Position numbers and translations under genes: made by a program. Under the pieces are notes generated by a model. That model did no database searches, was not told where the DNA came from, and saw only the letters and a list, made by a program, of their open reading frames with translations. 64,000 nucleotides of DNA from an uncultured Myxococcales bacterium (GTDB lineage Bacteria; Myxococcota; UBA4151): assembly GCA_964013405.1 (NCBI GenBank), contig CAXGWI010000005.1:3411-67410 (forward strand), in the 5' to 3' direction. How positions within the stretch are numbered: the stretch's first letter is position 1; the number at the start of each line of letters is the position of its first letter. Shown here piece after piece: positions 2,152 through 54,207 of this stretch.

Positions 2152-2699
2152 GAAGTCTTTTGCTGTTGAGCAGCCTTTGTGTGGCCAGCGCCGCCCAAGC
2201 CACCGTCGTCCTGAAAATGGACCGGGCCGAGATGACCCAGATGAGCGATGACGTGCTGATGGTTCGAGTCGGTGCCCAGCGGGTGGTGGAAGAACAACCC
2301 GGCGCCCTGGTGACCCTGACCGATCTGGAAGTCCTCGAAAGCTTCAAAGGCAAGTACGAGGCCGGCGACACCGTGCTCTTGCAGCAAGCCGGCGGGGTGA
2401 AGGGTGACTGGGTGATGCACATCCCCGGCAAGAACACCTACCGTTTCGGTGAAACTTTGGTGCTCTTTTTAAATCGTCACCGAGACCGGGTGGTGCCCGT
2501 GGGCGTCGGCATCGGCCGCATGGTGGTCGAGGGGGAAGGCGACAGTGCCCTGTTGAAGGAAGAGTACGGTGATGTGGCCTTCGCTGAGCGTAACCCCAAA
2601 GGGAAAATGCGCTTCATGCACGGACCCCCGCCGAGCAAGCCCGTGAAACTCAGCGTCTTTCGCCGCTGGATCAGCAGTCTCTTGGAGGGCTCGCGCTGA
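2148..2699 (+). CDS. Small secreted hypothetical protein (183 aa) embedded between two metzincin genes
   Basis: Signal peptide MRSLLLLSSLCVASAAQA. A GAGAGGAG Shine-Dalgarno sits 9 nt upstream. The start overlaps the upstream stop as ATGA (2148-2151), and the stop overlaps the downstream start as TGATG (2697-2701). I recognise no known domain. Confidence 0.5.
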   Translation: MRSLLLLSSLCVASAAQATVVLKMDRAEMTQMSDDVLMVRVGAQRVVEEQPGALVTLTDLEVLESFKGKYEAGDTVLLQQAGGVKGDWVMHIPGKNTYRFGETLVLFLNRHRDRVVPVGVGIGRMVVEGEGDSALLKEEYGDVAFAERNPKGKMRFMHGPPPSKPVKLSVFRRWISSLLEGSR

Positions 2700-4687
2700 T
2701 GCGTCTTCTCCTCGTCATGACCGCCTTAAGCCTCGCCACCCCGGCGGCGGCTTGGCAGGCGCAGATCGGCAAGTGGAGCCTCGATGGCTCGCCCAACATC
2801 GCCTACCGCGTGAACACCCGCGGGGCTCCCGGCATCGCCGGCGACTCGGATCTGCAAGCCATTCGAAACTCCTTCGACAGTTGGAGTGGTGTGAGTTGCT
2901 CCACCATCAACCTGGTGGAGTCTGGGACCACGAACAATTTACCCAACGCCCGCCGGGACAACGTGAACAATGTTTGGTTTGAAACCCGTGCCAATGCTTG
3001 GAGTTATGGCTCCGGCACCCTGGGCATCACCGGGACCTCCTTCTCGGGCTTTGGTTGTCGGGGCAATGGTCGGCCCGCTCGGGATTGCTGGATCGTCGAT
3101 GCCGATGTGCAGTTCAATGCGGTGCAACACGCAGACGGCTGGAGCACCAACGGGCGCGGCGGCTTGGACGTGGAGTCCATCTCCGTCCATGAGATCGGGC
3201 ACAGTCTCGGCCTCGATCACCCCTGCGAAAACTGCACCGTCGATGCGGTGATGACCCCGTCGTATGTGGGCTATCCCTTTCGCTATCCCCGCCAGGATGA
3301 CACCAACGCCGTTTGCAGTCTTTATCCCGGTGAGCGGGGCGGCCTCGGTTGGGGCTGCAACCGAGACTCCGACTGCAATTCCCGTATTTGCCTGGATGAC
3401 GGTTCCAACGATTACTGCACCGTGACCTGTGGGAACTGCCCGGACGGCTACGAGTGTCGGGCCGACAATGGTCGCAATGTCTGCCAACGGGCGGCCGCTG
3501 GCAGTGGCGCGGCCCAGCAAGGCGAAAGCTGTGCTGGCGGTCGGGCCTGCGGACCGGGCCTGCTGTGCCTGGGCGATCAAAACGACGCCACCTGCTATGC
3601 CGAGTGCGACCGGGGCAATTGCGAGGCCGGCTTTATTTGCGAAACCTTCTCATCCAATGGGCAAAACATCTCCATTTGCTTGCCCGGTGGCACCACTGCT
3701 GAAGGGGAGCCATGCGATTCGCTGTATGCCTGCGCGGCGGGCCTGGAATGCGCCCCTGTGGGTCGTAGCTATGTTTGTGCCAGAGGCTGCCGGAGCGACA
3801 GCGATTGCAACGAGCGCGAGAACTGTCAGGAGTTGACCCGGCCCGGCATCGACACGGTCCAGGTCTGTGTGGAGTCCAACACCGCCCTCGAAGGGGAGAG
3901 TTGTCAGCGTAAGCGTTGCGCCGATGGTCTGACCTGCTTGAGTGATGCGGGCGAACGGCTTTGCTTTCGCAACTGTCGCAGTCGGGCCGACTGCAGCTCG
4001 GGCCTCGACTGCATCGAGATCAGCGATACGATCTCCATCTGCTATGCCAACAACTGCACCGAAGACCGGGACTGCGAGCGGGGTAAAATCTGCCTCGAAG
4101 GCAGTTGCGTGGACGAGACCGGTGGCTGCCGAGCCGATACCGAATGCCGCCGGGGTGAGCTCTGTGAAAACGGTGAATGCACGCCCTTCGAAAGCAATGG
4201 TGATCTGCCGGACAACGAACGCTGCGCCGACGATGGCGACTGCGTGTCGGGTCGCTGTGCAGCCATTGGCTCCACTCGGGTTTGTCGCCCCGGCTGCGAT
4301 CGCCGCCTGGGGCACTTCGAATGCCCCGAGGGCTTTGGCTGCATCCCCGACGATGAAGGCAATGGCTATTGCGAGCGCGGCGCCGACGAAGGGGGCCAAA
4401 GCATCGGTAGCCCCTGCAGCAGCGCCATCGAATGCCGCCAAGGCATCTGTGGCAGCGACTGGGGCTTTGGTGGCGAATGTCTCACCTGGTGTGGCGAGAA
4501 CTTCATCTGTCCCACGGGCTATCTCTGCGATTCGGCCAACAACCCCATGCCCGGGCTCTGTGTGCCCGAAGGGGGCGGTGTCGCCCCCGGTCTGGCCTGT
4601 GCCTGTGAGGGCACGACACCGGACTTCTGGTTCATGGGATTAGGACTGCTCGCAGTGCTCGGTTGGCGTCGCCGCCGCTCAGCCTAA
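2699..4687 (+). CDS. Secreted matrixin-like zinc metalloprotease 2 with an extended Cys-rich repeat region and a MYXO-CTERM-type tail
   Basis: Signal peptide MRLLLVMTALSLATPAAA. HEIGHSLGLDHPC is followed by VDAVMTP. There are more than ten CxxDxDC/CxxGxC-type repeats. The C-terminus is ACACEGTTPDFWFMGLGLLAVLGWRRRRSA. Confidence 0.7.
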   Translation: MRLLLVMTALSLATPAAAWQAQIGKWSLDGSPNIAYRVNTRGAPGIAGDSDLQAIRNSFDSWSGVSCSTINLVESGTTNNLPNARRDNVNNVWFETRANAWSYGSGTLGITGTSFSGFGCRGNGRPARDCWIVDADVQFNAVQHADGWSTNGRGGLDVESISVHEIGHSLGLDHPCENCTVDAVMTPSYVGYPFRYPRQDDTNAVCSLYPGERGGLGWGCNRDSDCNSRICLDDGSNDYCTVTCGNCPDGYECRADNGRNVCQRAAAGSGAAQQGESCAGGRACGPGLLCLGDQNDATCYAECDRGNCEAGFICETFSSNGQNISICLPGGTTAEGEPCDSLYACAAGLECAPVGRSYVCARGCRSDSDCNERENCQELTRPGIDTVQVCVESNTALEGESCQRKRCADGLTCLSDAGERLCFRNCRSRADCSSGLDCIEISDTISICYANNCTEDRDCERGKICLEGSCVDETGGCRADTECRRGELCENGECTPFESNGDLPDNERCADDGDCVSGRCAAIGSTRVCRPGCDRRLGHFECPEGFGCIPDDEGNGYCERGADEGGQSIGSPCSSAIECRQGICGSDWGFGGECLTWCGENFICPTGYLCDSANNPMPGLCVPEGGGVAPGLACACEGTTPDFWFMGLGLLAVLGWRRRRSA

Positions 4688-15274: not shown

Positions 15275-17857
15275 ATGTCCAGCACCCTTCTTCTCCCCAT
15301 GGCGGTTACGGTCATTCTGGCAACGCCAGGGGCCAAAGCGCCGGCCGGCGGCTTGGTCACCGCACCGGCCTTGTTGCCAGGAGAGCGGGTGCCTTACCCG
15401 GACCCCCCTGGCCTCGGCGGTCCCGAAGGGCGCTGTGATGCCCTCATCGACATCGACGACACGGGCCTAGTGCAACGGATCCAAATCCTGACCTGTAGTG
15501 ACCCTCGTTTTGCGGCCCAGTTGCTCGACCATGGTCCCAATTATCGTTTTTCACCGGGGGCCACGGCGGAGGGACCGGTCCCGGTCCGGATCCGCTGGGA
15601 GGAGCTCTTTGTTCCCCCGGAGCCTCCCAAACCCGTGGTGAAGCCGGTCCGATTGTTGGGCCAGGTTCGGGAAGCCGGCACGGGCGTGGTGTTGCCGGGC
15701 ATTGAGGTGACCGTGGCCAAGCAGCAAGTCGAGACGGACACGAAGGGGCGCTTCTCCTTTCGGGGTACCGGCGATGGGGAGCATATCCTGCGCTTCGTGG
15801 CCGATGGTTATCACCCAAAAACCCAGGGGGTCGTCCTGGCTCCCCAGGAGCAGGTGGAGCTCAACATTTACCTACGCCCAACCGCGGCCAACCGCTTCGT
15901 GGCGGTGGTGAAGAAGCGGAAGGAAGAGGCCTCCATCGTCCGCCGGACCCTCCATGCGGAGGAATTGGCCCGGGTGCCTGGCACGATGGGCGATCCGATC
16001 CGGGCGGTGGAGCGATTACCGGGGGTCGCCCGAGCCCCCTTCTTCGGCGGGGCCTTGATCGTTCGAGGGGGGCAAACTCAAGACACGGGTGTGCATATCG
16101 ACGCCTACCAAGTCCCCCTTTTGTTCCACTTTGGTGGCGGGCCCTCGATCATTCATCCGGACCTCGTCGAGCAGATCGACTTCCTCCCCGGCGGCTTCAG
16201 CTCGGAATATGGCCGGGCCATCGCCGGCATTATCGACGTGAAGACTCGGCGGGCCGACGGCAGTCGGTTCAGTGGGAAGATCGACATCGACTTGCTGGAC
16301 TCAGGGTTGCGGGTCGAAGGCCCCGTGGATCGGGAGGGGAACTGGGCCGCTGCCCTGACCGCTCGACGCTCGTACGTCGACCAGTTGTTGCCCATCGCCC
16401 TCGACGCCGTGGGGGCGGGCAGTGAGGTCCGGGTGCAGCCGGTCTACTGGGATTACCAGGCCCGGCTCGACTATGTGAAGAAGGGCAGCCCTCGAAAGGG
16501 CGGCCTGCGACTCTACGGTAGCGACGATGTTTTTCGCCTGGTCAGCGCCGATGAAGAGGCCGCTCGCCGGGAAGGCCGCCCCCCCGGCATCGGCATTCAT
16601 ACCCGCTTTCATCATCTGGTCGCCGATGTGGAGCAGCGACTGGGCCCAGGAACTCGACTGCTGGCGGACATGAAGCTCGGCACCACCCGAACCGGGGGTG
16701 ATGTGGGCGATATTCGCTGGGATTTGGGCTACACCTCCGCGGCTCTGCGGGGTCAAGTTCGTCACCGAGTCCACCCGGGCCTTGAGTTGAGAACAGGCCT
16801 GGCCTTCGAGGACCAGTACTGGACGAGCGATGCGCGCATCCCGGTCAACTCGATCCTCGAGCGGAATTTTCCAGGCAGCGATTTGGGCGACGACTTCACG
16901 CTGACGGAGATCTCCGAGAATGGCAACGGGATCGGGCTCGATGGCTTTCTCACCCTTCATTGGAAGCCGGACCGAGAACTGGATTTCTTTCCTGGCTTGC
17001 GCATCAGTACCAGCCATTGGGGGGATCAAAGCCGAGTGGCCTTCGAGCCACGCCTGAGCCTGCAGGTGAAGTTGGATCCGGAGGGTCGACACCGGCTTAA
17101 GTTCCAGAGCGGCCACTATACTCGCATGCCCCAGCCCCAGGAGGTGTCGAACACCTTGGGCGATCCCGGCCTCGAGTTGGTGAAAGCCTGGCAATACGGG
17201 ATCGGCTACGAGATCGAGGTCGACCCCTACCTCACCACCGATCTGCAGATGTATTATCGCCGCATGTGGGACGGCATCACGAACAACCGGAATTACGTCA
17301 ATGGGGGCAGTGAGCCCCGCATTCACAATGAAGGCTGGGGCCGGGCCTACGGCATCGAGTTGATGGTGCGGGCGAATCCCGGACCCAAGCCCTACTATGG
17401 CTGGATCGCCTACACCCTCAACCGCAGCGAGCTCTACGATGGGGATCGGCCCGAAGATGGCTGGACCTTGTTCAACCTCGACCAAACCCACATCCTCAAC
17501 ACCGTGCTGGGCTACAAGTTTGGCTATGGCTGGGTCACAGGGCTGACCATTCGACTCGTCAGCGGGACGCCGACCACCACCCTGGAAGGGGCCCGCTTCG
17601 ATGTGGATACGGGGGATTATCGAGCTTTTCGTAGCGAGAAGAACGACGCCCGCAAGCCTCCCTTCTTTCAGGTCGATTGGCGTATCGAGAAACGCATCGC
17701 CCGGGCGAGGACCGCCTGGGTCTGGTATGTGGATGTGATGAACCTAACCAATCACGAGAACACCGAGTTCTACATTTATCAGTATGACTTCCGGGCCCGG
17801 ACCAGCTTGCCTGGCTTGCCCTTCTTCCCTTCCCTCGGTTTGGAGTACACGTGGTGA
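15275..17857 (+). CDS. TonB-dependent outer-membrane receptor with N-terminal carboxypeptidase-regulatory-like domain (Oar-like)
   Basis: CarbopepD_reg-like segment GIEVTVAKQQVETDTKGRFSFRGTGDGEHILRF. Plug region GTMGDPIRAVERLPGV. Long beta-barrel ending in the aromatic residues ...GLEYTW. Confidence 0.7.
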   Translation: MSSTLLLPMAVTVILATPGAKAPAGGLVTAPALLPGERVPYPDPPGLGGPEGRCDALIDIDDTGLVQRIQILTCSDPRFAAQLLDHGPNYRFSPGATAEGPVPVRIRWEELFVPPEPPKPVVKPVRLLGQVREAGTGVVLPGIEVTVAKQQVETDTKGRFSFRGTGDGEHILRFVADGYHPKTQGVVLAPQEQVELNIYLRPTAANRFVAVVKKRKEEASIVRRTLHAEELARVPGTMGDPIRAVERLPGVARAPFFGGALIVRGGQTQDTGVHIDAYQVPLLFHFGGGPSIIHPDLVEQIDFLPGGFSSEYGRAIAGIIDVKTRRADGSRFSGKIDIDLLDSGLRVEGPVDREGNWAAALTARRSYVDQLLPIALDAVGAGSEVRVQPVYWDYQARLDYVKKGSPRKGGLRLYGSDDVFRLVSADEEAARREGRPPGIGIHTRFHHLVADVEQRLGPGTRLLADMKLGTTRTGGDVGDIRWDLGYTSAALRGQVRHRVHPGLELRTGLAFEDQYWTSDARIPVNSILERNFPGSDLGDDFTLTEISENGNGIGLDGFLTLHWKPDRELDFFPGLRISTSHWGDQSRVAFEPRLSLQVKLDPEGRHRLKFQSGHYTRMPQPQEVSNTLGDPGLELVKAWQYGIGYEIEVDPYLTTDLQMYYRRMWDGITNNRNYVNGGSEPRIHNEGWGRAYGIELMVRANPGPKPYYGWIAYTLNRSELYDGDRPEDGWTLFNLDQTHILNTVLGYKFGYGWVTGLTIRLVSGTPTTTLEGARFDVDTGDYRAFRSEKNDARKPPFFQVDWRIEKRIARARTAWVWYVDVMNLTNHENTEFYIYQYDFRARTSLPGLPFFPSLGLEYTW

Positions 17858-18837
17858 GAATCGGGATCCTGCTCATCGCCGCGACGGCCACGGCTTGCCT
17901 GGGGGAATTGGAGTCCTCCCAAAGGGTGAGTCGAACCCGGATTTTAGCCATTCAGGCCGAGCCACCCACGATGATGCTGGGGGCGACGACCCGGTTGCGG
18001 GCCCTGGTGGCGACGCCGCCGGGGGAGGAGGTCGCGGAAACGGCCCTCCGGTGGCTCGACTGTGGTGGCGAAACCCGGCCCGATGAAAGCCGAGATCTGT
18101 GCCAGGAGAACCCGGAGCGCAGCTTGGGAACCGGCTTTGAGGTGGACTACCAGCTCCCCGAAAACCTGGACCCCAGCCTGGTGGCTGAACAGTCCTTTAC
18201 CGGCGGCTACTGGCAACGGGTGAGTTTGCAGGTCGCCGGGGCCGGGGAGAACTTTGACCGGGCTTTTAAACGGGTGGTGGTCCAGCTCCCCGCCCCGGGC
18301 CCGGTCCCGCCGGCCGAAGCCCCCAACCAGAACCCGAACATGGTGGAGCCCGTCGTCGAGATCCTCAAAAAGAACAGCGATGAAGTGGAGGCGGTTCTGG
18401 GGCCCGACGAAGCCCTGAAGCCGGATCTGCGCTACCGGTTCAGTTTCGACTTTCCCCTCGAAGACCACGAAGCCTTCATTCGGCGCTACGTGGATTTATC
18501 CGGCCTCGATTTGGCCAAGGTTGATGACCTCTCTGAGGAGGATTGGCTCCAACGACTCCGGCAGGAGGAGACCTTTGAGAGCCTACGCATGCGGGCTTAC
18601 AGTACCGATGGTCGCATCGGCGAGACCCAGTTAGGGACCACCAAAAACGAGGGCGTTGAGCCCGGTGAGCGGAGCTACTACCCCTTTCATTGGCAATTCA
18701 GCATTCCCCTGACCGAGGGCTTTGAAGAGACGCCTCGAGCCGAGCCTTTGCCCGCGGAGATCCGGCTTTGGTTCATCGTCTATGATGGCCGCGGTGGCAT
18801 CGACTGGTTGGCTTGGAGTCGAGCCCTCGAGCCTTAG
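17851..18837 (+). CDS. Hypothetical lipoprotein downstream of the TonB-dependent receptor
   Basis: Signal with lipobox-like LIAATATAC. The GTG start overlaps the receptor stop. No recognisable domain. Confidence 0.5.
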   Translation: MVRIGILLIAATATACLGELESSQRVSRTRILAIQAEPPTMMLGATTRLRALVATPPGEEVAETALRWLDCGGETRPDESRDLCQENPERSLGTGFEVDYQLPENLDPSLVAEQSFTGGYWQRVSLQVAGAGENFDRAFKRVVVQLPAPGPVPPAEAPNQNPNMVEPVVEILKKNSDEVEAVLGPDEALKPDLRYRFSFDFPLEDHEAFIRRYVDLSGLDLAKVDDLSEEDWLQRLRQEETFESLRMRAYSTDGRIGETQLGTTKNEGVEPGERSYYPFHWQFSIPLTEGFEETPRAEPLPAEIRLWFIVYDGRGGIDWLAWSRALEP

Positions 18838-19476
18838 TTAGCTGCGCTTTCGGATCAGATTGAGACCGTCCCGGACGCTCAGGATGACCTGTTCCACCCG
18901 GTCATCGGCCGCCACCTTTTCATTGAAGGCAGCGAGGGCATGGTCGCTGGGTGCCTGGGGGTTCAGTACATTGCCCGACCAGAGCACGTTGTCGGCCACC
19001 ATGACGCCGCCAGGTCTGAGTTTGGGCAGCAGAAGATCGAAGTAGTTGGCGTAGTTTGCTTTGTCCGCGTCGATGAACACGAAATCGATGGGCTCGCTGA
19101 GATCGGCGAGGGTTTCGAGAGCCGGCCCTAGCCGCAATTCGATCTGCTGATCCTGACCCATCTTTTGCCAGGCCTCTTGGCCTAAGGCCGTGCACTCGGC
19201 GTCCACATCGCAGGTGATCAGTTTGCCGGACTCGGTGAGCCCCTCGGCGATCCAGCTGCTGGCGTAGCCCGTAAAGGTGCCCACCTCCACGGCGAGGCGT
19301 CCACCGCTCAATGCGGTCAGGGTTTTGAGGGTCTGGCCCACCAAGGGACCACTGAGCATCTGGGGCACCTGCATGCGGGCATAGGTCGCTTCCCGCAGCC
19401 AAGTTCGGACGGGATGATCGGCCACCGAATGGCTGCGAGCATAATCTTCGATCGCATCGGGAACGAGGGTGAGCAT
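18838..19476 (-). CDS. Class I SAM-dependent O-methyltransferase (family 3, caffeoyl-CoA O-methyltransferase-like)
   Basis: VEVGTFTGYASSWIAEGL and DFVFIDADKANYANYFDLLLPKLRPGGVMVADNVLW are CCoAOMT-family signatures. Confidence 0.85.
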   Translation of the reverse strand: MLTLVPDAIEDYARSHSVADHPVRTWLREATYARMQVPQMLSGPLVGQTLKTLTALSGGRLAVEVGTFTGYASSWIAEGLTESGKLITCDVDAECTALGQEAWQKMGQDQQIELRLGPALETLADLSEPIDFVFIDADKANYANYFDLLLPKLRPGGVMVADNVLWSGNVLNPQAPSDHALAAFNEKVAADDRVEQVILSVRDGLNLIRKRS

Positions 19477-19586
19477 GGTATGGACTCCTTCAAAAGGGCG
19501 TCAGCCTATAGGCCGAGCAAGGCGACTTGAAAACCGCGACCAGCCGGCGCTCGGCAGCTTGGTTTATTGACAGATGTCGCCGCGGA

Positions 19587-20483
19587 TCACTCCTCGCAGG
19601 TCTGTCCCGATGGCTCACAGGTGACCCAGTCAACGCAGGCCCAGCAGCCATCACGAATAACGCTGACGGTGCCATGTTCGCAGACTGGGCGGGTGCAACG
19701 ACAGGTCAGTCGGTCCTCGGTGGCACAACCATGGGGCGTGCAGGCCTGAACGCAGTCCTCGCAGCCATCACAGCTGGGGTGGGCGCAGTGATTACAGCTG
19801 TGGCTTGCCGGACAGTCTGCGTCATTCTCGCAGGCGCCCTCGCCCCGGGGCATGCAGGTCTCGATGCGCACGCACTCCCAGCACCCCCCTTGGACCGCTG
19901 GGATGTCTGCACCACAATCCGGCATTCCAATTTCACACATGAGTTCCCCGCCGTCATCGCAGGATTCATCACGCCCGGGACCGCCTTCGGGCACGCAGGT
20001 TTCTTCGTCGACGCAAAGCCAGCAACCGTCGATAATCGCCGGGATGTAACCCATATCGCAAACGGGCTCGGCCATGCGGCAGGTGAGTTCACTGCCATCA
20101 TCACAGAAGGTCACCCGTCCCGCACCGGCCGGGCGGCACGTGCGGCTATCCACACAGACCCAACAACTGTCTTGAATCGCTAACATCTCGCCGGCGCCAC
20201 AGGGGGGCTCCTGGGCCGGACAGGTTCGCCGCGTGCCATCATCGCAGCGTTCATCCCGGGCCGGAGCACCGGCGTCGGGGGGTGCGGAACCCGCGTCGGC
20301 GGCCGGCGCTTGGCCCGTGTCAGTTCCTGCGCCGCTATCTTCAACGGGCTCGGGGCCGCTGTCGGTCACGGTGTTCCCCGAGTCCGCGGCTGCCGCCGGT
20401 CCGGCGTCGGCCTCCACATTGTCCTCCGCTGGACATGCGGCGATCAGGCTCAAGGTGAGGCAAGTGGCGATCGTATATCTCAT
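19587..20483 (-). CDS. Cys-rich secreted lipoprotein with about four tandem ~42-aa CDDG...GCWxCV...TCxP repeats
   Basis: AGGGAG lies 6 nt upstream of ATG 20483. Signal with lipobox MRYTIATCLTLSLIAAC. A D/G/A/P-rich linker follows, then repeats such as CDDGSELTCRMAEPVCDMGYIPAIIDGCWLCVDEETCVPEG. The track ORF extends 13 codons further upstream. Confidence 0.6.
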   Translation of the reverse strand: MRYTIATCLTLSLIAACPAEDNVEADAGPAAAADSGNTVTDSGPEPVEDSGAGTDTGQAPAADAGSAPPDAGAPARDERCDDGTRRTCPAQEPPCGAGEMLAIQDSCWVCVDSRTCRPAGAGRVTFCDDGSELTCRMAEPVCDMGYIPAIIDGCWLCVDEETCVPEGGPGRDESCDDGGELMCEIGMPDCGADIPAVQGGCWECVRIETCMPRGEGACENDADCPASHSCNHCAHPSCDGCEDCVQACTPHGCATEDRLTCRCTRPVCEHGTVSVIRDGCWACVDWVTCEPSGQTCEE

Positions 20484-20591
20484 GACGAGCTCCCTAGGCA
20501 GCCTGCCAGCTTGCCCGCCCAAAGGGCAAGGTGGGACAATTGCGGCTGTCGCAGGCCTCGGCTATGACTCTCGCGCCTTCTAGGAGGATTC

Positions 20592-21752
20592 TTGCGTTAC
20601 CCTGCCCTGCTTCTCTCGCTCTTTGTGCTCGCTTGTGCACCCGATGACAGCAATCTACCCGGCGAATTGGGGGGGGAGCCAGAGCCGCCCCCGCCCTACG
20701 ACCCGATGCCTGCGTGGGCGGATTTGGAAGCCGAGGCTTGGACCGAGATCAACCCCGGTTGGAACACCCTCTGCTCTCGAGGTCAGCCTTGGGGCTTCTT
20801 CGTGCGTCCCGGGGACCCGAAGAAGGTGGTGGTTGAGTTTCAAGGCGGTGGCGCCTGTTGGAACTTTGGCACCTGTTCCGTCGCCGACGCCATCTTTAAG
20901 GACAACATCGATGATGTTCGCCAGGCCGTGATGGCGGGCACCTTTAGTGGGATCTATGACCAAAATAATGACGACAATCCGATCAAGGGGTGGACCCACG
21001 TGTTTGTGCCCTACTGTACCGGTGACATCCACTGGGGCGAGTCGGAGATGCTCTACGAACAAGAGGGTGTAGAGTCTTTCAATCTGCACCACAAAGGGGC
21101 CAACAACAGCCGGGCGATGATGTACTGGCTGAGCCAGCAAGGGATCGTGGCGCCCGAAAAGATCTTTGTGACCGGCTGTAGCGCTGGGTCCTACGGCAGT
21201 GTGGGCTGGGCACCTTATTTGATGCAGCAGTACCCGGCAGCGAAGGTTGTTCAGATGGGGGACTGTGGAGCCGGTGTGATCACCGACAGCTTCCTCAGCG
21301 ACTCCTTTCCGGTTTGGGAAGCCCGCAAAATGCTACCCGAATGGATTCCTGCCTTACACCCGGACACGGTCGACCTTTCAAACATGGCCCTCTACGACCT
21401 CTATCGGGAGATCGGCAATCACCACAGTGATCAGCGAGTCAGTCAATACAACACGATCTATGACAGCACGCAGGTGACTTACTTCCGCTACATGGGCGCG
21501 GGCGGTGATGGTGACCCCAGGGAGAACTGGCGTGCCGGCATGCTCGATTCCATGAAGCGAATCGCCGACAGCACCGAGAACTTCCGCTACTTCATCGCCG
21601 AGGGGGAAGATCACTGCATCCTCCACCGCGACAGTTTTTATACGGTCAGCGAAGACGGCACGAGCTTGGTGGATTGGATCAACAGCATGCTCGACGATGA
21701 CACCGTCGAGAACCCGAGCTGTGAGAACTGCGAACCTGCGCTCCTTGAATAG
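20592..21752 (+). CDS. Pectin-acetylesterase/Notum-family (PAE, PF03283-like) serine hydrolase lipoprotein
   Basis: Lipoprotein signal LFVLAC. VVVEFQGGGACWNFGTC matches the PAE GGGWC block. VTGCSAGSYGS is a GxSxG nucleophile elbow. Confidence 0.5.
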   Translation: MRYPALLLSLFVLACAPDDSNLPGELGGEPEPPPPYDPMPAWADLEAEAWTEINPGWNTLCSRGQPWGFFVRPGDPKKVVVEFQGGGACWNFGTCSVADAIFKDNIDDVRQAVMAGTFSGIYDQNNDDNPIKGWTHVFVPYCTGDIHWGESEMLYEQEGVESFNLHHKGANNSRAMMYWLSQQGIVAPEKIFVTGCSAGSYGSVGWAPYLMQQYPAAKVVQMGDCGAGVITDSFLSDSFPVWEARKMLPEWIPALHPDTVDLSNMALYDLYREIGNHHSDQRVSQYNTIYDSTQVTYFRYMGAGGDGDPRENWRAGMLDSMKRIADSTENFRYFIAEGEDHCILHRDSFYTVSEDGTSLVDWINSMLDDDTVENPSCENCEPALLE

Positions 21753-21763
21753 CACAGTGGTTT

Positions 21764-21793
21764 CAGGGAAAGGCTGGAGGGCTTCTTTTCCTG
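21764..21793. terminator. Imperfect hairpin between convergent genes (possible bidirectional terminator)
   Basis: CAGGGAAAG...CTTTTCCTG forms a 9-bp stem with one G-T wobble pair and a 12-nt loop. It lies between the PAE-like gene (+) and ileS (-). There is no clear U-tract. Confidence 0.25.
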
Positions 21794-21818
21794 AGGACCG
21801 AAAGAGACTCGGTCGAGC

Positions 21819-24800
21819 CTAGTCGACGACGAGTCCGAGGGTGTAGTTGTAGTCGCCCACCGACCCTTGGCTCACCAGCGCATCGGCTTGAGGCGCAAGG
21901 CCGGTCTCGATCTCGTTGGCGAGGGTCTCTCCCGCAATCGATGCTGCGAACTGTTTGGCTGCTCTCAACAAAGGTTCGTCCCCCTGCAGGGTCAAGCGAA
22001 TGCGGGCCACATAGTCGAGGTTTTGGTCTTTGCGCAGCGTCTGAATTCGGTTGATCAACTCCCGGGCATAGCCCTCGGTGATCAGGTCGTCGGTGAGCTC
22101 GGTGTCGAGGAGAACGGTGCCGACCGGACCGCCGGCCACGGCGAAGTTGCCTTCTGCCGTCACACTGACCGTGACGTGTTCCTGGGTCAGCCCAAAGCGC
22201 TCCCCATCATCGAGGGTGATCTCGTAGGCGCCGTCGCTGGCAAGCTGGGCCCGCACCTGGCCTGCATCGGCTGCGTCTAGGGCTTTGCGTACCAGCGGCA
22301 TCCGCTTGCCAAAGATCGGTCCGAGGGCCCGGTAGTTGGGCTTCACCTCAAATTGGACTCGGTCTCCTGCGTCCTGGCTAAAGCGCAGCTCCTTCACGTT
22401 GACCTCATTGAGGATGAGCCCCTCGTAGGGCTGCATCCGGGCGGCCAAACCGGTGGAGGCGGGAATGACTTCAGCGAGGGCGAGGGGCTGGCGAATCTTG
22501 AGCTTATGGTGGGTTCGGGTGCTGAGGGCGAGACTGCAGATCTCCCGGACAGCGGCCATGTCTTCGCTTAAGGGGCGGTCGATGAGCTCGGTCTGCACTT
22601 CGGGCCAATCGCAAAGGTGGACGCTCTGCTCGGCCCCATCGATCTGCCCGACCATCAGGTTCTGGTGCAGCTCTTCGGCCAGAAAAGGCACGAAGGGCGC
22701 AATGAGCCGACTCATGGTCACCAGGACCTCGTGAAGGCTGTGGTAAGCGTCCCACTTGTCCTGGTTCTTCTCACCACTCCAGAAGCGCTCCCGGCTGCGC
22801 CGCAACCACCAATTGCTCAAGGCATCGGTGAGGTGGATGATCGCTGCCGCCGCCTCGTGAATGGCGTAGGCGTCCATCTTCGCCGTCACCGTCTCCACGG
22901 TGAGTTGAAGTTCGGAGAGAATCCAGCGGTCGAGAAGGCAGCGCTCGGTGCCCGGGCGCTGAGGCGAGGTGGCGGGCTCGAAGCCGTCGATGTTGCCGTA
23001 GATGACGAAGAAGGCGTAGACGTTGTGGAGTTTTAGCAAGAACTCCTGCTGGGACTGACGGACCGCCTCTGGGCTGTAGCGGGTGTTGTTCCAGGGCGCG
23101 TTCGCCGCATAAAAGTACCAGCGCATCGCATCGGCACCGCTGCTGTCGAGGATGGCATCCGGAGGCGTGTAGTTGCCCTTCGATTTGGATTCCTTCTTCC
23201 CCTTCTTGTCGCAGACATGACCCAGGACGATGCAGTTCTTGTAAGGGTGCGCACCCTCCTTGTCTTCGAACAACAAGGTGCTCACCATCAACAAGGAGTA
23301 GAACCAGCCTCGGGTTTGGTCGATGGCTTCCGAGATGAAATCGGCGGGCCAGTTTTGCTCGAAAGCCTCGGTCCCTTGGTGGGGGTAGCCCCATTGGGCG
23401 AAGGGCATGCAGCCGGAATCAAACCAGCAATCGATGACCTCAGGCACCCGATGCATGGTGCCACCACAGGATTCGCAGGGGACCTCCACCTCGTCGATCC
23501 ATGGTTTGTGGACGATGAGGTGCTCGCTTAGACTCGGATCTTCTTTCTGAGCCGCTTCGAAATGAGCAAAGGCCTTGGGGTTGAGGGCACGGATTTCATC
23601 ACAGCTGGAAAAGGCGCTGCGATCTTCACAAGTGGAGCATTCCCAGATGGGGAGTGGGGTGCCCCAGAAGCGCTCTCGGCTCAAAGCCCAGTCGACATTG
23701 TTGTCTAGGAAGTCGCCAAAGCGACCGTCTTTGATGTGGCCGGGAACCCAGTTGATGGCTTGATTGCTGGCCTTGGCCCGCTCGATCACCTCGGTGGTGC
23801 GGATGAACCAGGCCGGGCGGGCGTATTGGATGAGGGGGTCGTCGTCGGCCCGCCAGCAAAAGGGGTAGTCGTGCCGATAGGTTTTCTCTTCAAACAACAG
23901 ACCACGGTGTTGCAGAGCCCGGATGATGGTCCGGTCCGCATCCTTGCAAAACAGCCCTTCCAGCTCACCCGTACCTGGCAAAAACTTACCGTCGGGGCCG
24001 ATGAGCTGGAGGAGGCCCACGCCGTGTTTCATCGCCGCCCGGTTGTCATCTTCACCAAAGGCGGGGGCGGTGTGGACGATGCCCGTACCGGCGCTGGTGG
24101 TGACGAAGTCCGCATCGATGACCAAGTGATGATCACCGCCTTCGGGAACAGCGAAGTCGAAGAGGGGCTGGTAGCGTTGACCCAGCAGCTCCTCGCCGGA
24201 CACGGTTTTGAGCACTTCGTAGCTGTCTTGACCCAGGACTTTATCCAGGAGGTCCTCGGCGAGAATCAGGACCTCGTCGTCCCGGCGAGCATAGGCGTAG
24301 CGGAGGTTTTTGCGCACGGTGAGGGCGCAGTTGCTGGGCAGCGTCCAGGGGGTGGTCGTCCAGGCGAGGAAGAAGGTCTTGTCCTCCCCTTCGAGGGGAA
24401 AACGAACGGTGATGCTGGGGTCGTCTATGGGCCGGTAGCCCAGGCCAACTTCGGCGCTCGAGAGGGCGGTGCCACCTTGGGGCCACCACCAAACCACCTT
24501 TTTGCCCTGATAGAGCAGACCCCGGTCGAAGAGGGTCTTTAGGGCCCACCACACGCTCTCCACATAGGATTTGTGGTAGGTCACGTAGGCTTCTTCGAGG
24601 TTGACCCAAAAACCGATGCGCTCGGTGAGCTCCTGCCAGACGTCGGTGTAGGTAAAGACCGAGTCGATACAGCGGCGGGTGAAGGCCTCCAGACCGTAGT
24701 CAAGGATGGCTTCTTTGCCGTGAATTCCGAGGGATTTTTCCACCTCCACCTCGACGGGTAATCCGTGGGTGTCCCAGCCGGCTTTGCGGTTCACAAGATA

Positions 24801-25070
24801 GCCCCGCATGGTTTTGTAACGGGGCAGGAGGTCTTTGATGACCCGGGTGAGGACGTGCCCGTTGTGCGGGGTGCCATTGGCCGTCGGTGGGCCTTCGAAG
24901 AAGATATAGGGCTTGGCCCCTTGCCGGGCCGTTAGGCTCTTTTCGAAGATGCCGGCTTCTTTCCAGAATTTCAGGATCCGAGCTTCGAGTCCTGGGAAAT
25001 CCTTCGTCTGCTCCACGGCCTTGAACATGGCGACTCGCTCCTCGGGGCCCGCTTTCTTTGCGCTGGCCAA
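21819..25070 (-). CDS. ileS: Isoleucyl-tRNA synthetase, type 2 (eukaryote/archaeal-like)
   Basis: HIGH-class motif PTANGTPHNGHVLTRVIKD. KMSKS variant KKESKSKGN. The 1083-aa length and N-terminal organisation are typical of type-2 IleS. Confidence 0.92.
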   Translation of the reverse strand: MASAKKAGPEERVAMFKAVEQTKDFPGLEARILKFWKEAGIFEKSLTARQGAKPYIFFEGPPTANGTPHNGHVLTRVIKDLLPRYKTMRGYLVNRKAGWDTHGLPVEVEVEKSLGIHGKEAILDYGLEAFTRRCIDSVFTYTDVWQELTERIGFWVNLEEAYVTYHKSYVESVWWALKTLFDRGLLYQGKKVVWWWPQGGTALSSAEVGLGYRPIDDPSITVRFPLEGEDKTFFLAWTTTPWTLPSNCALTVRKNLRYAYARRDDEVLILAEDLLDKVLGQDSYEVLKTVSGEELLGQRYQPLFDFAVPEGGDHHLVIDADFVTTSAGTGIVHTAPAFGEDDNRAAMKHGVGLLQLIGPDGKFLPGTGELEGLFCKDADRTIIRALQHRGLLFEEKTYRHDYPFCWRADDDPLIQYARPAWFIRTTEVIERAKASNQAINWVPGHIKDGRFGDFLDNNVDWALSRERFWGTPLPIWECSTCEDRSAFSSCDEIRALNPKAFAHFEAAQKEDPSLSEHLIVHKPWIDEVEVPCESCGGTMHRVPEVIDCWFDSGCMPFAQWGYPHQGTEAFEQNWPADFISEAIDQTRGWFYSLLMVSTLLFEDKEGAHPYKNCIVLGHVCDKKGKKESKSKGNYTPPDAILDSSGADAMRWYFYAANAPWNNTRYSPEAVRQSQQEFLLKLHNVYAFFVIYGNIDGFEPATSPQRPGTERCLLDRWILSELQLTVETVTAKMDAYAIHEAAAAIIHLTDALSNWWLRRSRERFWSGEKNQDKWDAYHSLHEVLVTMSRLIAPFVPFLAEELHQNLMVGQIDGAEQSVHLCDWPEVQTELIDRPLSEDMAAVREICSLALSTRTHHKLKIRQPLALAEVIPASTGLAARMQPYEGLILNEVNVKELRFSQDAGDRVQFEVKPNYRALGPIFGKRMPLVRKALDAADAGQVRAQLASDGAYEITLDDGERFGLTQEHVTVSVTAEGNFAVAGGPVGTVLLDTELTDDLITEGYARELINRIQTLRKDQNLDYVARIRLTLQGDEPLLRAAKQFAASIAGETLANEIETGLAPQADALVSQGSVGDYNYTLGLVVD

Positions 25071-41200: not shown

Positions 41201-43168
41201 TTAGGGACAGACGCCCATCCCGGGCGGCATGGGCATGCACCCACCCGCCATGCAGCAGGGGGTCTCTTCGGGGCATGGAGGGAGGCCATCGCCGCATTGC
41301 TCAAGGGGGCCAGGTGTGCAGACACCATCGATGCAAGTTCCGCCATCTTGGCAGGGGTTCTCCTCGGAGCATTCGTTCGGCGGTGCGCAGGCTCCAGTCA
41401 TGCAGACGAGGCCGTCGGGACACTCGGGCAAGCCATCGCCGCATTCCTCAAGAGGTCCGGGTGCGCAGATGCCGTCGATGCAGGTTCCGCCATCTTGGCA
41501 GGGGTTTTCATCAGAACATTCGGTCGGCGGTGTGCAGGCTCCAGCCATGCAGATTTCACCCTCCGCGCAATCGTCATCGGCTTCGCAGGGCACAGGGTCA
41601 CAGTTGGTCTCGTCGTAAATACAGCCACAAGCCATCATGTCGCAGCGGTCGATGGTACAGGCTCGTCCATCGTCGCAATCCAGATCACTCTTGCAAGCGG
41701 TACGGAGGTCTTGGGGAAAGACGGGGGGATCTACCTCTTCCGGGAATTCCACCCGGCGATTGATGGGGGAGCCACAGGTCACTTTGACCGTTGAAGATGG
41801 GTTCAATTCCGGGCCGACGATGCGTACATTTTGTGGGTTTTCGAGCACATGCGCTCTCGATAACTCGAGTGTCACCTGCCCAAAAGCCCGGGTTCGAGCG
41901 GTGCCGAGACCGTTATTGTCTGCTCGTTCTGTGTAGACGCTGTGCTCGGTTTTGACCTCGGGGGTCCCTAGGTTGTGCAGGGGTTGTCCGATGGTGAAGG
42001 TTTGAAAGGTTGCGACCGTGTTGTAATGACCCGCAAAGCGGCTATGTGCGACGCCGTCACTCCAGAAGCGGCCACTGTCGAGTTCGCAAGCAAGGCCAAG
42101 GCCAATACTGCAGCCTGGGAGTTCGAGGCCGCCCATGTTGACGCCGAAGGTGAGGTTGCAACTGACGGTGGGGGCTTGGGTACTGCAACTGATCGCACTG
42201 CCGCCGATCGCCGCCTTGCTTTTATCTTCCTGGGAGTAGTTCGTGCCACCAGAGAAGTCAGGGAGTCGAAGGGTGACCTTCGATTGTGCATTGGCATTTT
42301 GATTGCCTAAGAGGGGCAGGGTGGTGCTGTAAGCACGACTTTGCAAAAGGGAATTCGCATGAGATGTGCCACCGACTTGTACGGAGACCTGGCCGCAGGC
42401 ACCGGCTCCATCTTCGGCGAAAGCGCAGCGAAGGGCTGGGCTGACCGACCGGCGACAACTGTTGCCTGCTATGGCCGAAACAGAGCCATTTCGCGCGACG
42501 CCCATGCCACCACATCCCGCTGTCGATCGTTGCTCATTGCTATAGGCGTATCCCGTGCCTGTGCATGCCTCACCGACGCGGGCAAAACCTGCCGTAGGCC
42601 GATCCTCGGTGATGCTTTGCGGCGAGACGACAAAGCTGCAGGAGACGAGGCATTGATGGCATCGACCGACGGTGGCTTCGTTGGCGAGGACGGTTAGCGC
42701 CTGTGTTCCCAGAAGTTCCCGGTCTCTAAGGTAGGCACCGTAAAGAAAGGCATGGACTCGATTCGTTGGGTCGTAGGCGCGAAAATACACGAGGGCCTCG
42801 AACCAGCGCAATTGGCGGTCCATTCCCTGCTCCTCGAACTGGTCTGCGTAGGCCTCGATATTTTCATTCACACCCGGCGGCATCACGACCAGATGTTGAT
42901 GAACTCGGACCGGGCGGCTCACGCTTTCACCCAGGATGGAAATATCGCCTTGAGCAAGGGAGGCCATCATCGATTCGCTCAAGTCTGTGAGTCCTTGTCG
43001 TTCAAGGTACTCTTTCGCTGAGATGATCTCGCCAGCATCGAGCTGACTCGCCGTCTCATAAAGTGCCCCTTGGCTGCGACGTTCCCAGGCTGCAGGGGCA
43101 GTGGGCTCCTGAGGCAGCTGCTCAATGCAGCCTGTCAGCGTGATGGAAAAGACAATGAGCATCCTCAT
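41201..43168 (-). CDS. Large lipoprotein with C-terminal Cys-rich 49-aa tandem repeats (EGF/defensin-like disulfide modules)
   Basis: Signal with lipobox ITLTGC. The C-terminus contains ECSDENPCQDGGTCIDGICAPGPLEECGDGLPECPDGLVCMTGACAPPN repeated near-identically, ending ...GCMPMPPGMGVCP. Confidence 0.6.
   Translation of the reverse strand: MRMLIVFSITLTGCIEQLPQEPTAPAAWERRSQGALYETASQLDAGEIISAKEYLERQGLTDLSESMMASLAQGDISILGESVSRPVRVHQHLVVMPPGVNENIEAYADQFEEQGMDRQLRWFEALVYFRAYDPTNRVHAFLYGAYLRDRELLGTQALTVLANEATVGRCHQCLVSCSFVVSPQSITEDRPTAGFARVGEACTGTGYAYSNEQRSTAGCGGMGVARNGSVSAIAGNSCRRSVSPALRCAFAEDGAGACGQVSVQVGGTSHANSLLQSRAYSTTLPLLGNQNANAQSKVTLRLPDFSGGTNYSQEDKSKAAIGGSAISCSTQAPTVSCNLTFGVNMGGLELPGCSIGLGLACELDSGRFWSDGVAHSRFAGHYNTVATFQTFTIGQPLHNLGTPEVKTEHSVYTERADNNGLGTARTRAFGQVTLELSRAHVLENPQNVRIVGPELNPSSTVKVTCGSPINRRVEFPEEVDPPVFPQDLRTACKSDLDCDDGRACTIDRCDMMACGCIYDETNCDPVPCEADDDCAEGEICMAGACTPPTECSDENPCQDGGTCIDGICAPGPLEECGDGLPECPDGLVCMTGACAPPNECSEENPCQDGGTCIDGVCTPGPLEQCGDGLPPCPEETPCCMAGGCMPMPPGMGVCP
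41204..41600. repeat. 147-bp direct tandem repeat (about 2.5 copies) encoding the Cys-rich C-terminal modules
   Basis: Units starting near 41286 and 41433 are nearly identical at the DNA level (ccatcgccgcattgctcaag... and ccatcgccgcattcctcaag...). A degenerate partial copy follows. Confidence 0.6.
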
Positions 43169-43953
43169 GGCAAGGCTCCGCAGTCGCCCAGATCAACGCA
43201 GCTTGAGCCTCTGACACAGGCGACGACCTCGGGCGTCCATTGCCCTCGGCACTGCTCAAGACAGTCGCCGATGTCGGCACCGTCGATCACCGCACAGGCA
43301 TTCATGATGCCACAGGACTGCTCGCAGAGGTCGACGGGATCGAAACAAGGCTCAAGGGCATCACATGAGGCGGCCTCCACGCACGTTCGCAGGTCGGAAT
43401 CCCCCTGATCAGCGCAGTCCAAAATGCAGGTCTCACGGGTCACGGCGTCCCCCAAGCAACTCACGAGTTTATCGCAATAGCTTACGCAGGTCGTTTGCTC
43501 GGCCTCAAGGCATGCCGCAGCGTCCTCACAGGAAGCAGCCTCCAGGCAGTCGAGCGCGTTTTCGCTAAGGGCATCGCAGTGAAAGTTTGCTCCAAAGACA
43601 CTTTCATCGCCGCAGTTGTCACGACGGTTGCTGAGTGCGTGGCAGCGGTCCGCTTGGTTTTGGCGAAAGCAACTGCCCATTTGGTCGCAGGTTCTCTCTT
43701 TGAGACAGGTCAACTGCTCTGCAGGCACGGACGCGGTGCATTGACTCATACATTGCTCGTACATGGGGCCGGGGTCACCGCTGGTTTCACAGTCCGCCAT
43801 CCGAGCGCAGGCATCACCACAAGGACTGCCGTCGCTGAGAGGGACAGGCTCCACGGGAGGCGGCGGCTCGGCGGGACAGGCACTCCACACGATGAGCAGC
43901 GCAAAATGACAAGTGAGTCGTCGCAAAATACAGGTCTCCCGTCTTCTACCCAT
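43165..43953 (-). CDS. Cys-rich secreted lipoprotein (hypothetical), first gene of a two-gene operon
   Basis: Signal with lipobox LLIVWSAC. About 36 Cys in 262 aa, in CxxxxC patterns. The stop overlaps the start of the downstream lipoprotein gene (43165-43168). Confidence 0.55.
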   Translation of the reverse strand: MGRRRETCILRRLTCHFALLIVWSACPAEPPPPVEPVPLSDGSPCGDACARMADCETSGDPGPMYEQCMSQCTASVPAEQLTCLKERTCDQMGSCFRQNQADRCHALSNRRDNCGDESVFGANFHCDALSENALDCLEAASCEDAAACLEAEQTTCVSYCDKLVSCLGDAVTRETCILDCADQGDSDLRTCVEAASCDALEPCFDPVDLCEQSCGIMNACAVIDGADIGDCLEQCRGQWTPEVVACVRGSSCVDLGDCGALP

Positions 43954-54204: not shown

Positions 54205-54207
54205 CGA

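Follow-up and report, generated by a model that had tools for sequence, protein, structure and literature searches.

The 64,000-nucleotide stretch analyzed here (the window), from an uncultured Myxococcales bacterium, carries on its minus strand a gene (19587–20483) encoding a lipoprotein of 298 amino acids. Reading of the sequence makes it very probable that this protein consists of a lipid-attached Cys17, an acidic linker of about 60 residues, and an array of small cysteine-rich modules in the order A-A-A-B-A'. Modules A and B are a family without counterpart in the libraries that we searched (Pfam-A, NCBIfam, and PDB), and it is within these libraries that we call them new. As the best explanation of the data as a whole we favor, by a narrow balance of probability, a new family of binding modules that are braced by disulfides, act outside the cytoplasm, and are candidate protease binders.

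The open reading frame (ORF) comprises 298 codons and a stop codon at 19587–19589, and begins with an ATG at 20483 that is preceded, 6 nucleotides 5' of it, by an AGGGAG ribosome-binding site. An alternative TTG start at 20522 is less likely, because this ribosome-binding site would fall inside the extension and the ortholog begins at the equivalent methionine. That ortholog, the sole match when the single protein was scanned against GTDB species genomes, lies in a Myxococcales metagenome-assembled genome (MAG), isolate EAC29 (L005, NZRT01000108.1); it shares 65% identity and the same A-A-A-B-A' layout, and retains all 34 cysteines of the mature domain. Over the module region the two genes differ by 88 synonymous and 51 nonsynonymous codon changes, and over the signal peptide and linker (residues 1–78) by 22 synonymous and 37 nonsynonymous ones. 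Because synonymous changes outnumber nonsynonymous changes in the module region and the 34 cysteines are kept, the gene and its reading frame are, on this comparison, real and the modules are under purifying selection; the linker evolves fast and freely. Two plus-strand ORFs (19527–20183 and 20233–20583) were set aside as shadow ORFs of GC-rich (guanine-plus-cytosine-rich) DNA, since it is in the minus frame that most substitutions relative to the ortholog are synonymous. A scan for promoters and terminators yielded nothing useful on the strand of the lipoprotein gene. Gene order is shared with the ortholog's locus and runs through isoleucyl-tRNA synthetase (IleRS), a pectin-acetylesterase-like lipoprotein, the lipoprotein gene, an O-methyltransferase, a hypothetical lipoprotein, and a TonB-dependent receptor. 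This syntenic block corresponds to approximately 15275–25070 of the window, and the synteny with EAC29, a marine MAG, indicates that the window derives from a related uncultured Myxococcota lineage of about 62% GC.

All features of the protein described below are encoded on the minus strand. Residues 1–16, MRYTIATCLTLSLIAA, read as a type II (lipoprotein) signal peptide with Arg2 as the positive n-region and a hydrophobic core behind it, and they close in the lipobox I-A-A-C17 (signal peptide plus Cys17, 20433–20483); by reading of the sequence this agrees with the pattern [LVI][ASTVI][GAS]-C of SPase II substrates, and the same region of the ortholog reads …GLSVA-C. Next comes a low-complexity acidic linker of 59 residues (18–76; 20256–20432) that contains neither cysteine nor lysine and of which 68% is Asp, Gly, Ala, or Pro. 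Module A is present in three consecutive copies: residues 77–119 (20127–20255; Cys80, 88, 95, 107, 110, and 116; 52.9 bits), 124–166 (19986–20114; Cys127, 135, 142, 154, 157, and 163; 57.9 bits), and 172–213 (19845–19970; Cys175, 183, 190, 201, 204, and 210; 45.6 bits). Module B follows at residues 216–249, CENDADCPASHSCNHCAHPSCDGCEDCVQAC (19737–19838; Cys218, 224, 230, 233, 238, 241, 244, and 248; 36.2 bits). The protein ends in a fourth copy of A, of the subtype A' and with a C-terminal cap (residues 250–298; 19590–19736; Cys253, 261, 268, 280, 283, and 289; 57.0 bits), to which an additional pair, Cys263 and Cys296, brings the cysteine total to eight. The mature protein (19590–20435) has an isoelectric point (pI) of 4.05, no lysine in 282 residues, and a cysteine content of 12%, the number of cysteines being even once the lipid-modified Cys17 is set aside.

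With their cysteines in register, the four A copies follow the pattern C-x7-C-x6-C-x11/12-C-W-x-C-V-x5-C-P, and 12 columns are invariant among them (C, C, P, C, C, W, C, V, T, C, P, and G). Module B follows C-x5-C-x5-C-x2-C-x4-C-x2-C-x2-C-x3-C. For the family at large we define B operationally by this same pattern and A by C-x7-C-x6-C-x11/12-C-[WY]-x-C-V-x4/5-C, together with hidden Markov models (HMMs) built from other members; by this definition the window protein contains four A modules and one B. All module bit scores come from leave-one-out HMMs, built from homologs without the window protein. The best of 300 composition-preserving shuffles of the cysteine-rich region reached 9.0 bits, against 45.6–57.9 for the A copies and 36.2 for B, and when the entire window was scanned in all six frames, neither module scored above 5 bits anywhere outside the lipoprotein gene.

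An earlier note, made from the DNA sequence, had described this gene product as a lipoprotein in which a D/G/A/P-rich linker precedes about four tandem units of some 42 residues, each with six invariant cysteines and the motifs CDDG, GCWxCV, and TCxP. The lipobox and the composition of the linker bear out the first two of these points. The count of four holds for A, but the tandem is interrupted: the eight-cysteine module B separates copies 3 and 4. The unit length needs correction: the first cysteines (Cys80, 127, and 175) are spaced 47–48 residues apart, and the core from Cys1 to Cys6 measures 36–37 residues. All four copies keep the six cysteines, although copy 4 has eight; CDDG is found in copies 1–3, but copy 4 reads CATE; CWxCV is invariant, but the glycine before it is a serine in copy 1; and TCxP is invariant throughout, as described.

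A sequence search with the window protein returned 21 close homologs, none of which is named or has a Pfam domain; all come from metagenomes or MAGs. The usual unit of the family is A-B-A', which in 38 aligned units measures 121–125 residues (123 amino acids) and contains 20 invariant cysteines. When a profile of this unit was run against 1.84 billion cluster representatives (50% identity), 329 clusters matched at E ≤ 1e-3, 193 at E ≤ 1e-10, and 77 at E ≤ 1e-30; all 329 are unnamed, and those that were looked up are singletons. On these searches the family is genuine yet rare, and it reaches beyond the genome of the window. A word-index search with the 43-residue A profile gave three fragments only. 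Among 168 members analyzed with local HMMs, architectures include A-B-A', two to five successive A-B-A' units, three A modules, runs of five to eight A modules, A-B, B-A, and Kazal-A-B, in addition to the A-A-A-B-A' layout of the window protein. Copy number ranges over the family from one to 14 modules, and most relatives begin with a lipobox. These arrangements show that A and B stand on their own as modules and are shuffled, with A-B-A' as their ancestral unit. One member is labeled Sandaracinaceae and one Deltaproteobacteria, the ortholog is labeled Myxococcales, and the host contigs range from 45.5% to 71.4% GC; because of these labels and this spread, the family probably extends beyond one order.

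Most A modules at unit boundaries carry a conserved R-D-[ET]-[SH] directly before Cys1 (in the window at 19970–19962 and 20255–20247), and this Arg-Asp motif might either form a salt bridge with a structural role or mark a site of processing. Two more unnamed cysteine modules, which we call N (C.PG..R.F.CPDG..VPWC.C..G.W.C...P...C) and G (CE..GG.C…C..G…CP.G…CC.P), occur in several homologs (P0003, P0005–P0008, P0011, P0013, P0015, and P0023) and are missing from the window protein. Module G is repeated many times in P0023, in which examples of N and G modules stand at residues 60–100 and 240–265; a Pfam scan of the two modules matched neither.

The pattern of cysteine loss and gain among relatives bears directly on how the modules are held together. 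All six cysteines are present in 431 of 434 full-length A modules, and the other three all lack C2 and C4 together. All eight are present in 211 of 225 full-length B modules; eight of the remainder have lost C5 and C6 together, four have lost C4 and C7 together, and two have lost a single cysteine. The additional pair of the cap behaves in the same way: a CxC at Cys2 of the C-terminal A' is accompanied by a cysteine in the tail in 15 of 15 cases, as against one of 52 terminal modules without CxC. Because cysteines are thus lost and gained in pairs, we infer that they form disulfides and are not metal ligands, and the bonds to which these pairs point are C2–C4 in A, C4–C7 and C5–C6 (the CPxC pair) in B, and Cys263–Cys296 in the cap. 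The last of these would tie the C-terminal tail back to a residue two positions past Cys2.

Structures were modeled with AlphaFold2 from family alignments. The A3-B-A4 segment of the window protein was predicted with a pLDDT (predicted local distance difference test) of 90.2 and a pTM (predicted template modeling score) of 0.64, and a single A module (copy 2) with a pLDDT of 91.8. In the predicted A module about 20 irregular N-terminal residues, which hold Cys1–Cys3 and an almost invariant proline, lead into one β-hairpin, with CWxCV as its second strand; the model of B likewise centers on a hairpin, and the predicted structures contain no regular secondary structure other than β-hairpins. A Foldseek search against solved structures gave no convincing similarity (best E-value 0.72, probability ≤ 0.11), and sequence profiles from the PDB gave nothing relevant.

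Library searches likewise failed to connect the modules with a named family. No Pfam-A family matched the window protein at E ≤ 10, and nothing meaningful matched the 38 A-B-A' units; in NCBIfam the one match was noise, its 11.9 bits lying far below the cutoff of 250. That these libraries do work is shown by a positive control, ORF 51787–54207 of the window, which was matched by TIGR02232 in 14 stretches (2.2e-85, 280 bits) and by DUF4215 (238 bits). A literature search on myxobacterial cysteine-rich repeats, disulfide-rich proteins of Myxococcota, and prokaryotic Kazal domains found only the work on TraA and TIGR02232 to be relevant. TIGR02232 and DUF4215 repeats do resemble A in forming acidic, cysteine-rich arrays of units of about 40 residues in exported proteins, in occurring in the same lineage and genome, and in having a C-D-D-G motif. 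The TIGR02232-type repeats of the window, however, have four invariant cysteines (CGDG…CDDGN…C…C) in place of the six of A, and CWxCV is missing from TIGR02232. We rejected A as a TIGR02232/DUF4215 (PF13948) repeat, as there was no match at E ≤ 10, nor an HMM match the other way round, and the hhalign comparison gave a probability of 2.6% over eight columns that cover the CDDG motif only.

Kazal domains, to which we return below, were considered in the same way. Kazal and Antistasin domains are, like A and B, small disulfide-locked exported modules that occur in arrays, and in some relatives they are physically fused to A and B. A diverged Kazal domain (PF00050/PF07648) was nevertheless rejected as the identity of A, with no Pfam match and an hhalign probability of 0.9% when A was compared with 27 Kazal domains from fusion proteins of this very family; Kazal domains contain a helix, whereas A is all-β in the model, and A has no recognizable reactive-site loop, unlike Kazal inhibitor modules. 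The direct boundary between Kazal and A recalls follistatin domains, in which a small EGF-like subdomain abuts a Kazal subdomain, but the A fusions run Kazal-A, in the opposite order.

The earlier note had further pointed out that the module differs from TIGR02232, had proposed that it might represent a previously undescribed family of disulfide-rich extracellular repeats, and had suggested HMM searches with the repeats, structural modeling, and a check for an existing Pfam or TIGRFAM repeat. The comparisons above and the 329 clusters support the proposal of a new family, the distinction from TIGR02232 stands, no existing repeat of either library was found to match, and the models are predicted with the confidence given above. 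That account was accurate as to the family but missed module B, the cap disulfide, and the A-B-A' unit in which the family evolves.

The main indication of function comes from the domains to which the modules are fused. Among 91 long representatives, Kazal_1 was found in 11 and Antistasin in two, and all other Pfam families were singletons; among 54 further matches Kazal was the only Pfam domain, in nine proteins. A Kazal core motif is present in 18 of the 168 members, usually immediately before A-B, where the two meet as …GEC-RDTxC-DDG…, and the gene for one homolog (P0018) adjoins that of a Kazal protein of 1879 amino acids (L003 9008–14647, minus strand). Another homolog (P0048, L006 2736–6023), of 1095 amino acids, has at least seven Kazal domains fused to A-B-A' units; to our knowledge, bacterial Kazal arrays of such size are little documented. 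Within A the most variable columns are the Cys1–Cys2 and Cys2–Cys3 loops, which lie in the irregular N-terminal half of the model.

We propose that the protein, once outside the cytoplasm, would undergo oxidative folding and become a rigid array that is strongly acidic (pI ~4), free of lysine, and resistant to proteases. Flexibly tethered to the membrane, this array would bind an extracellular partner through the variable Cys1–Cys2 and Cys2–Cys3 loops of its A modules. Secreted proteases would be the leading candidates for that partner, because the recurrent fusion domains, Kazal and less often Antistasin, are protease-inhibitor domains, and the protein might then protect the cell envelope, either by inhibiting such proteases or by acting as a decoy for them. 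We consider it fairly probable that the protein is a binding array of some kind; that its target is a protease is a tentative suggestion, and on balance doubtful. In the most far-reaching version, A and B would be protease binders of a bacterial class not described before, their fold would differ from every solved structure, and lipid-tethered arrays of them would act as an anti-protease shield of the envelope in Myxococcota-like bacteria. This version is distinctly unlikely; if true, it would place a new family of bacterial inhibitor scaffolds beside the fused Kazal and Antistasin modules.

Several observations weigh against binding to proteases. Six gene neighborhoods of unrelated members share no partner and hold no protease, about 85% of family members lack a Kazal domain, and the window protein itself is among proteins without one. 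Kazal domains of animals also occur in non-inhibitory matrix proteins, and the fusion may reflect mere shuffling among disulfide-rich extracellular modules. A function deduced from operon context was rejected, there being no partner common to the six contexts and synteny only with the close ortholog.

The main rival to a binding array is a structural coat or a matrix or adhesion protein. Its modules would then serve only as rigid, inert spacers, as in stalks built of EGF or TIGR02232 repeats, and the protein, without a specific target, would cover the cell surface with an acidic brush that resists proteases or contribute to an adhesive matrix there. This rival we judge rather unlikely, though it deserves serious weight. 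The protein consists of linker and modules and nothing else, the conserved residues other than cysteine (DDG, P17, W, V, T, and P) look structural and do not resemble a binding site, and the variation in copy number from one to 14, the want of a conserved operon partner, and the extreme acidity without lysine would all suit a coat; moreover, the cysteine-rich repeats of myxobacterial TraA are reported to belong to a cell-surface receptor. Spacers alone, however, present nothing, and in many relatives A-B stands as a compact unit at the C terminus, preceded by unrelated N-terminal sequence or directly by Kazal, an arrangement more like that of a functional module than of a stalk; the fixed length of A-B-A' (121–125 residues) and its 20 invariant cysteines also suggest a defined superdomain. 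The other rivals are minor. One holds that the protein binds metal or is redox-active, sequestering metal or buffering thiols in the envelope, and it could draw on the 12% cysteine of the mature protein, on conserved acidic residues (DDG and DxDC) that could bind cations, and on the 4Fe-4S ferredoxin spacing CxxCxxCxxxC in B (read C-P-x-C-x-D-C-V-x-x-C). We rejected an iron-sulfur site in B and consider metal or redox chemistry in general very improbable: the signal is of the Sec type for lipoproteins and has no twin-arginine motif, which implies folding after export; two of the four "ferredoxin" positions are among those lost pairwise (C5 with C6, C4 with C7), the signature of disulfides and not of a four-ligand cluster; the cysteine count of the mature protein, Cys17 aside, is even; and neither Fer4 nor any other metal-binding Pfam family matched at E ≤ 10. 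The acidic motifs may bind Ca2+, but such binding would be structural.

Least probable of all, in our estimate, is a polyprotein precursor that would be cut at the Arg-Asp before each A (…R-D-[ET]-[SH]-C-DDG…) to free disulfide-rich peptides of about 45–125 residues, for example defensin-like toxins or signals. The Arg-Asp pair is indeed kept just before most A modules in an otherwise arginine-poor, lysine-free protein, the array is a tandem of autonomous, small, knotted modules, and the lineage, represented by a Myxococcales MAG, is plausibly predatory; yet the lipid anchor and long tether speak for retention on the cell, members with a single unit have the same boundary motif, and a strongly anionic charge (pI 4) is atypical of membrane-active antimicrobial peptides. 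A last alternative concerns the origin of the modules: A might be a highly diverged known fold, EGF-like or TIGR02232/DUF4215, beyond the reach of current HMMs, for which we see little chance. EGF-like domains share with A a length of about 40 residues, six similarly spaced cysteines (C-x7-C-x6-C-x11/12-C..C-x5-C in A), a central hairpin with Cys4 and Cys5, and tandem shuffling, and their C2–C4 bond matches the one that paired loss suggests for A; arrays of EGF and furin repeats (CD97, uromodulin, NELL1, EMR2, and RSPO2) also head the nonsignificant Foldseek list, and the CDDG motif is common to A and TIGR02232. Against this, no Pfam EGF-type, hEGF, or DUF4215 family matched the protein or the 38 units at E ≤ 10; hhalign gave 0.3% when A was compared with a small, manually entered EGF alignment and only the 2.6% already mentioned against the window's TIGR02232 repeats; the best Foldseek values are those given above; and where EGF domains have the signature C-x-C-x2-[GP]-[FYW]-x4-8-C, A has C-W-x-C-V-x5-C. 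By sequence A is not supported as an EGF domain, and we regard an EGF-like topology (disulfides 1–3, 2–4, and 5–6), on account of spacing, hairpin, and C2–C4, as a lead only.

Other genes of the window touch on these subjects. Two neighboring matrixin-like metalloproteases (Peptidase_M10, HExxHxxGxxH) with long cysteine-rich C-terminal regions are encoded on the plus strand at 799–2148 and 2699–4684; both are weakly similar to the myxosortase-dependent MXAN_2677/2678 metalloprotease family, and they are candidate partners of the lipoprotein. The ORF used above as a positive control (51787–54207, minus strand), which carries the TIGR02232 repeat named in the earlier note, encodes an exported protein of 807 amino acids with 14 TIGR02232 or nine DUF4215 repeats followed by a Laminin_G_3 (ConA-like) domain, and shows a weak similarity to the fimbrial protein TafC (24.7 bits against a cutoff of 410). 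Two further cysteine-rich exported proteins, unrelated to A and B, are encoded on the minus strand at 43171–43950 and 41207–43192; one is acidic and lipoprotein-like, with 33 cysteines and no match in Pfam or NCBIfam, and the other has 43 cysteines and a single match, to DUF7107.

Avoidance of lysine is not confined to the lipoprotein of the window. The median lysine content of the family is 0.2%, and 77 of the 168 members have no lysine past residue 30; two other cysteine-rich secreted proteins of the window (51787–54207 and 2594–4684) contain 0.1% and 0.4%, where 12 tabulated ORFs of the window average about 1.9% (range 0.1–4.6%). Such avoidance might reflect resistance to lysine-specific secreted proteases or selection for acidity.

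Small disulfide-locked repeat modules such as EGF, Kazal, and TIGR02232 are building blocks of extracellular proteins, and those of bacteria are far less catalogued than those of animals. To them the present analysis adds two modules without a library match and the 123-residue super-unit that they form, together with an HMM definition, a partial disulfide map, and confidently predicted models, and the definition of A and B would allow several hundred "hypothetical proteins" from metagenomes to be annotated. In kind the modules belong to the well-known small disulfide-rich extracellular type and are no surprise in this lineage; if they do not inhibit proteases, they simply add another domain of unknown function, new but routine, to a lineage in which many cysteine-rich secreted proteins are known. 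The repeated fusion with Kazal domains provides a concrete hypothesis, that of protease binding, and if protease inhibition proves true, the modules would offer scaffolds that are compact, highly stable, and free of lysine, and that might be of use in biotechnology.

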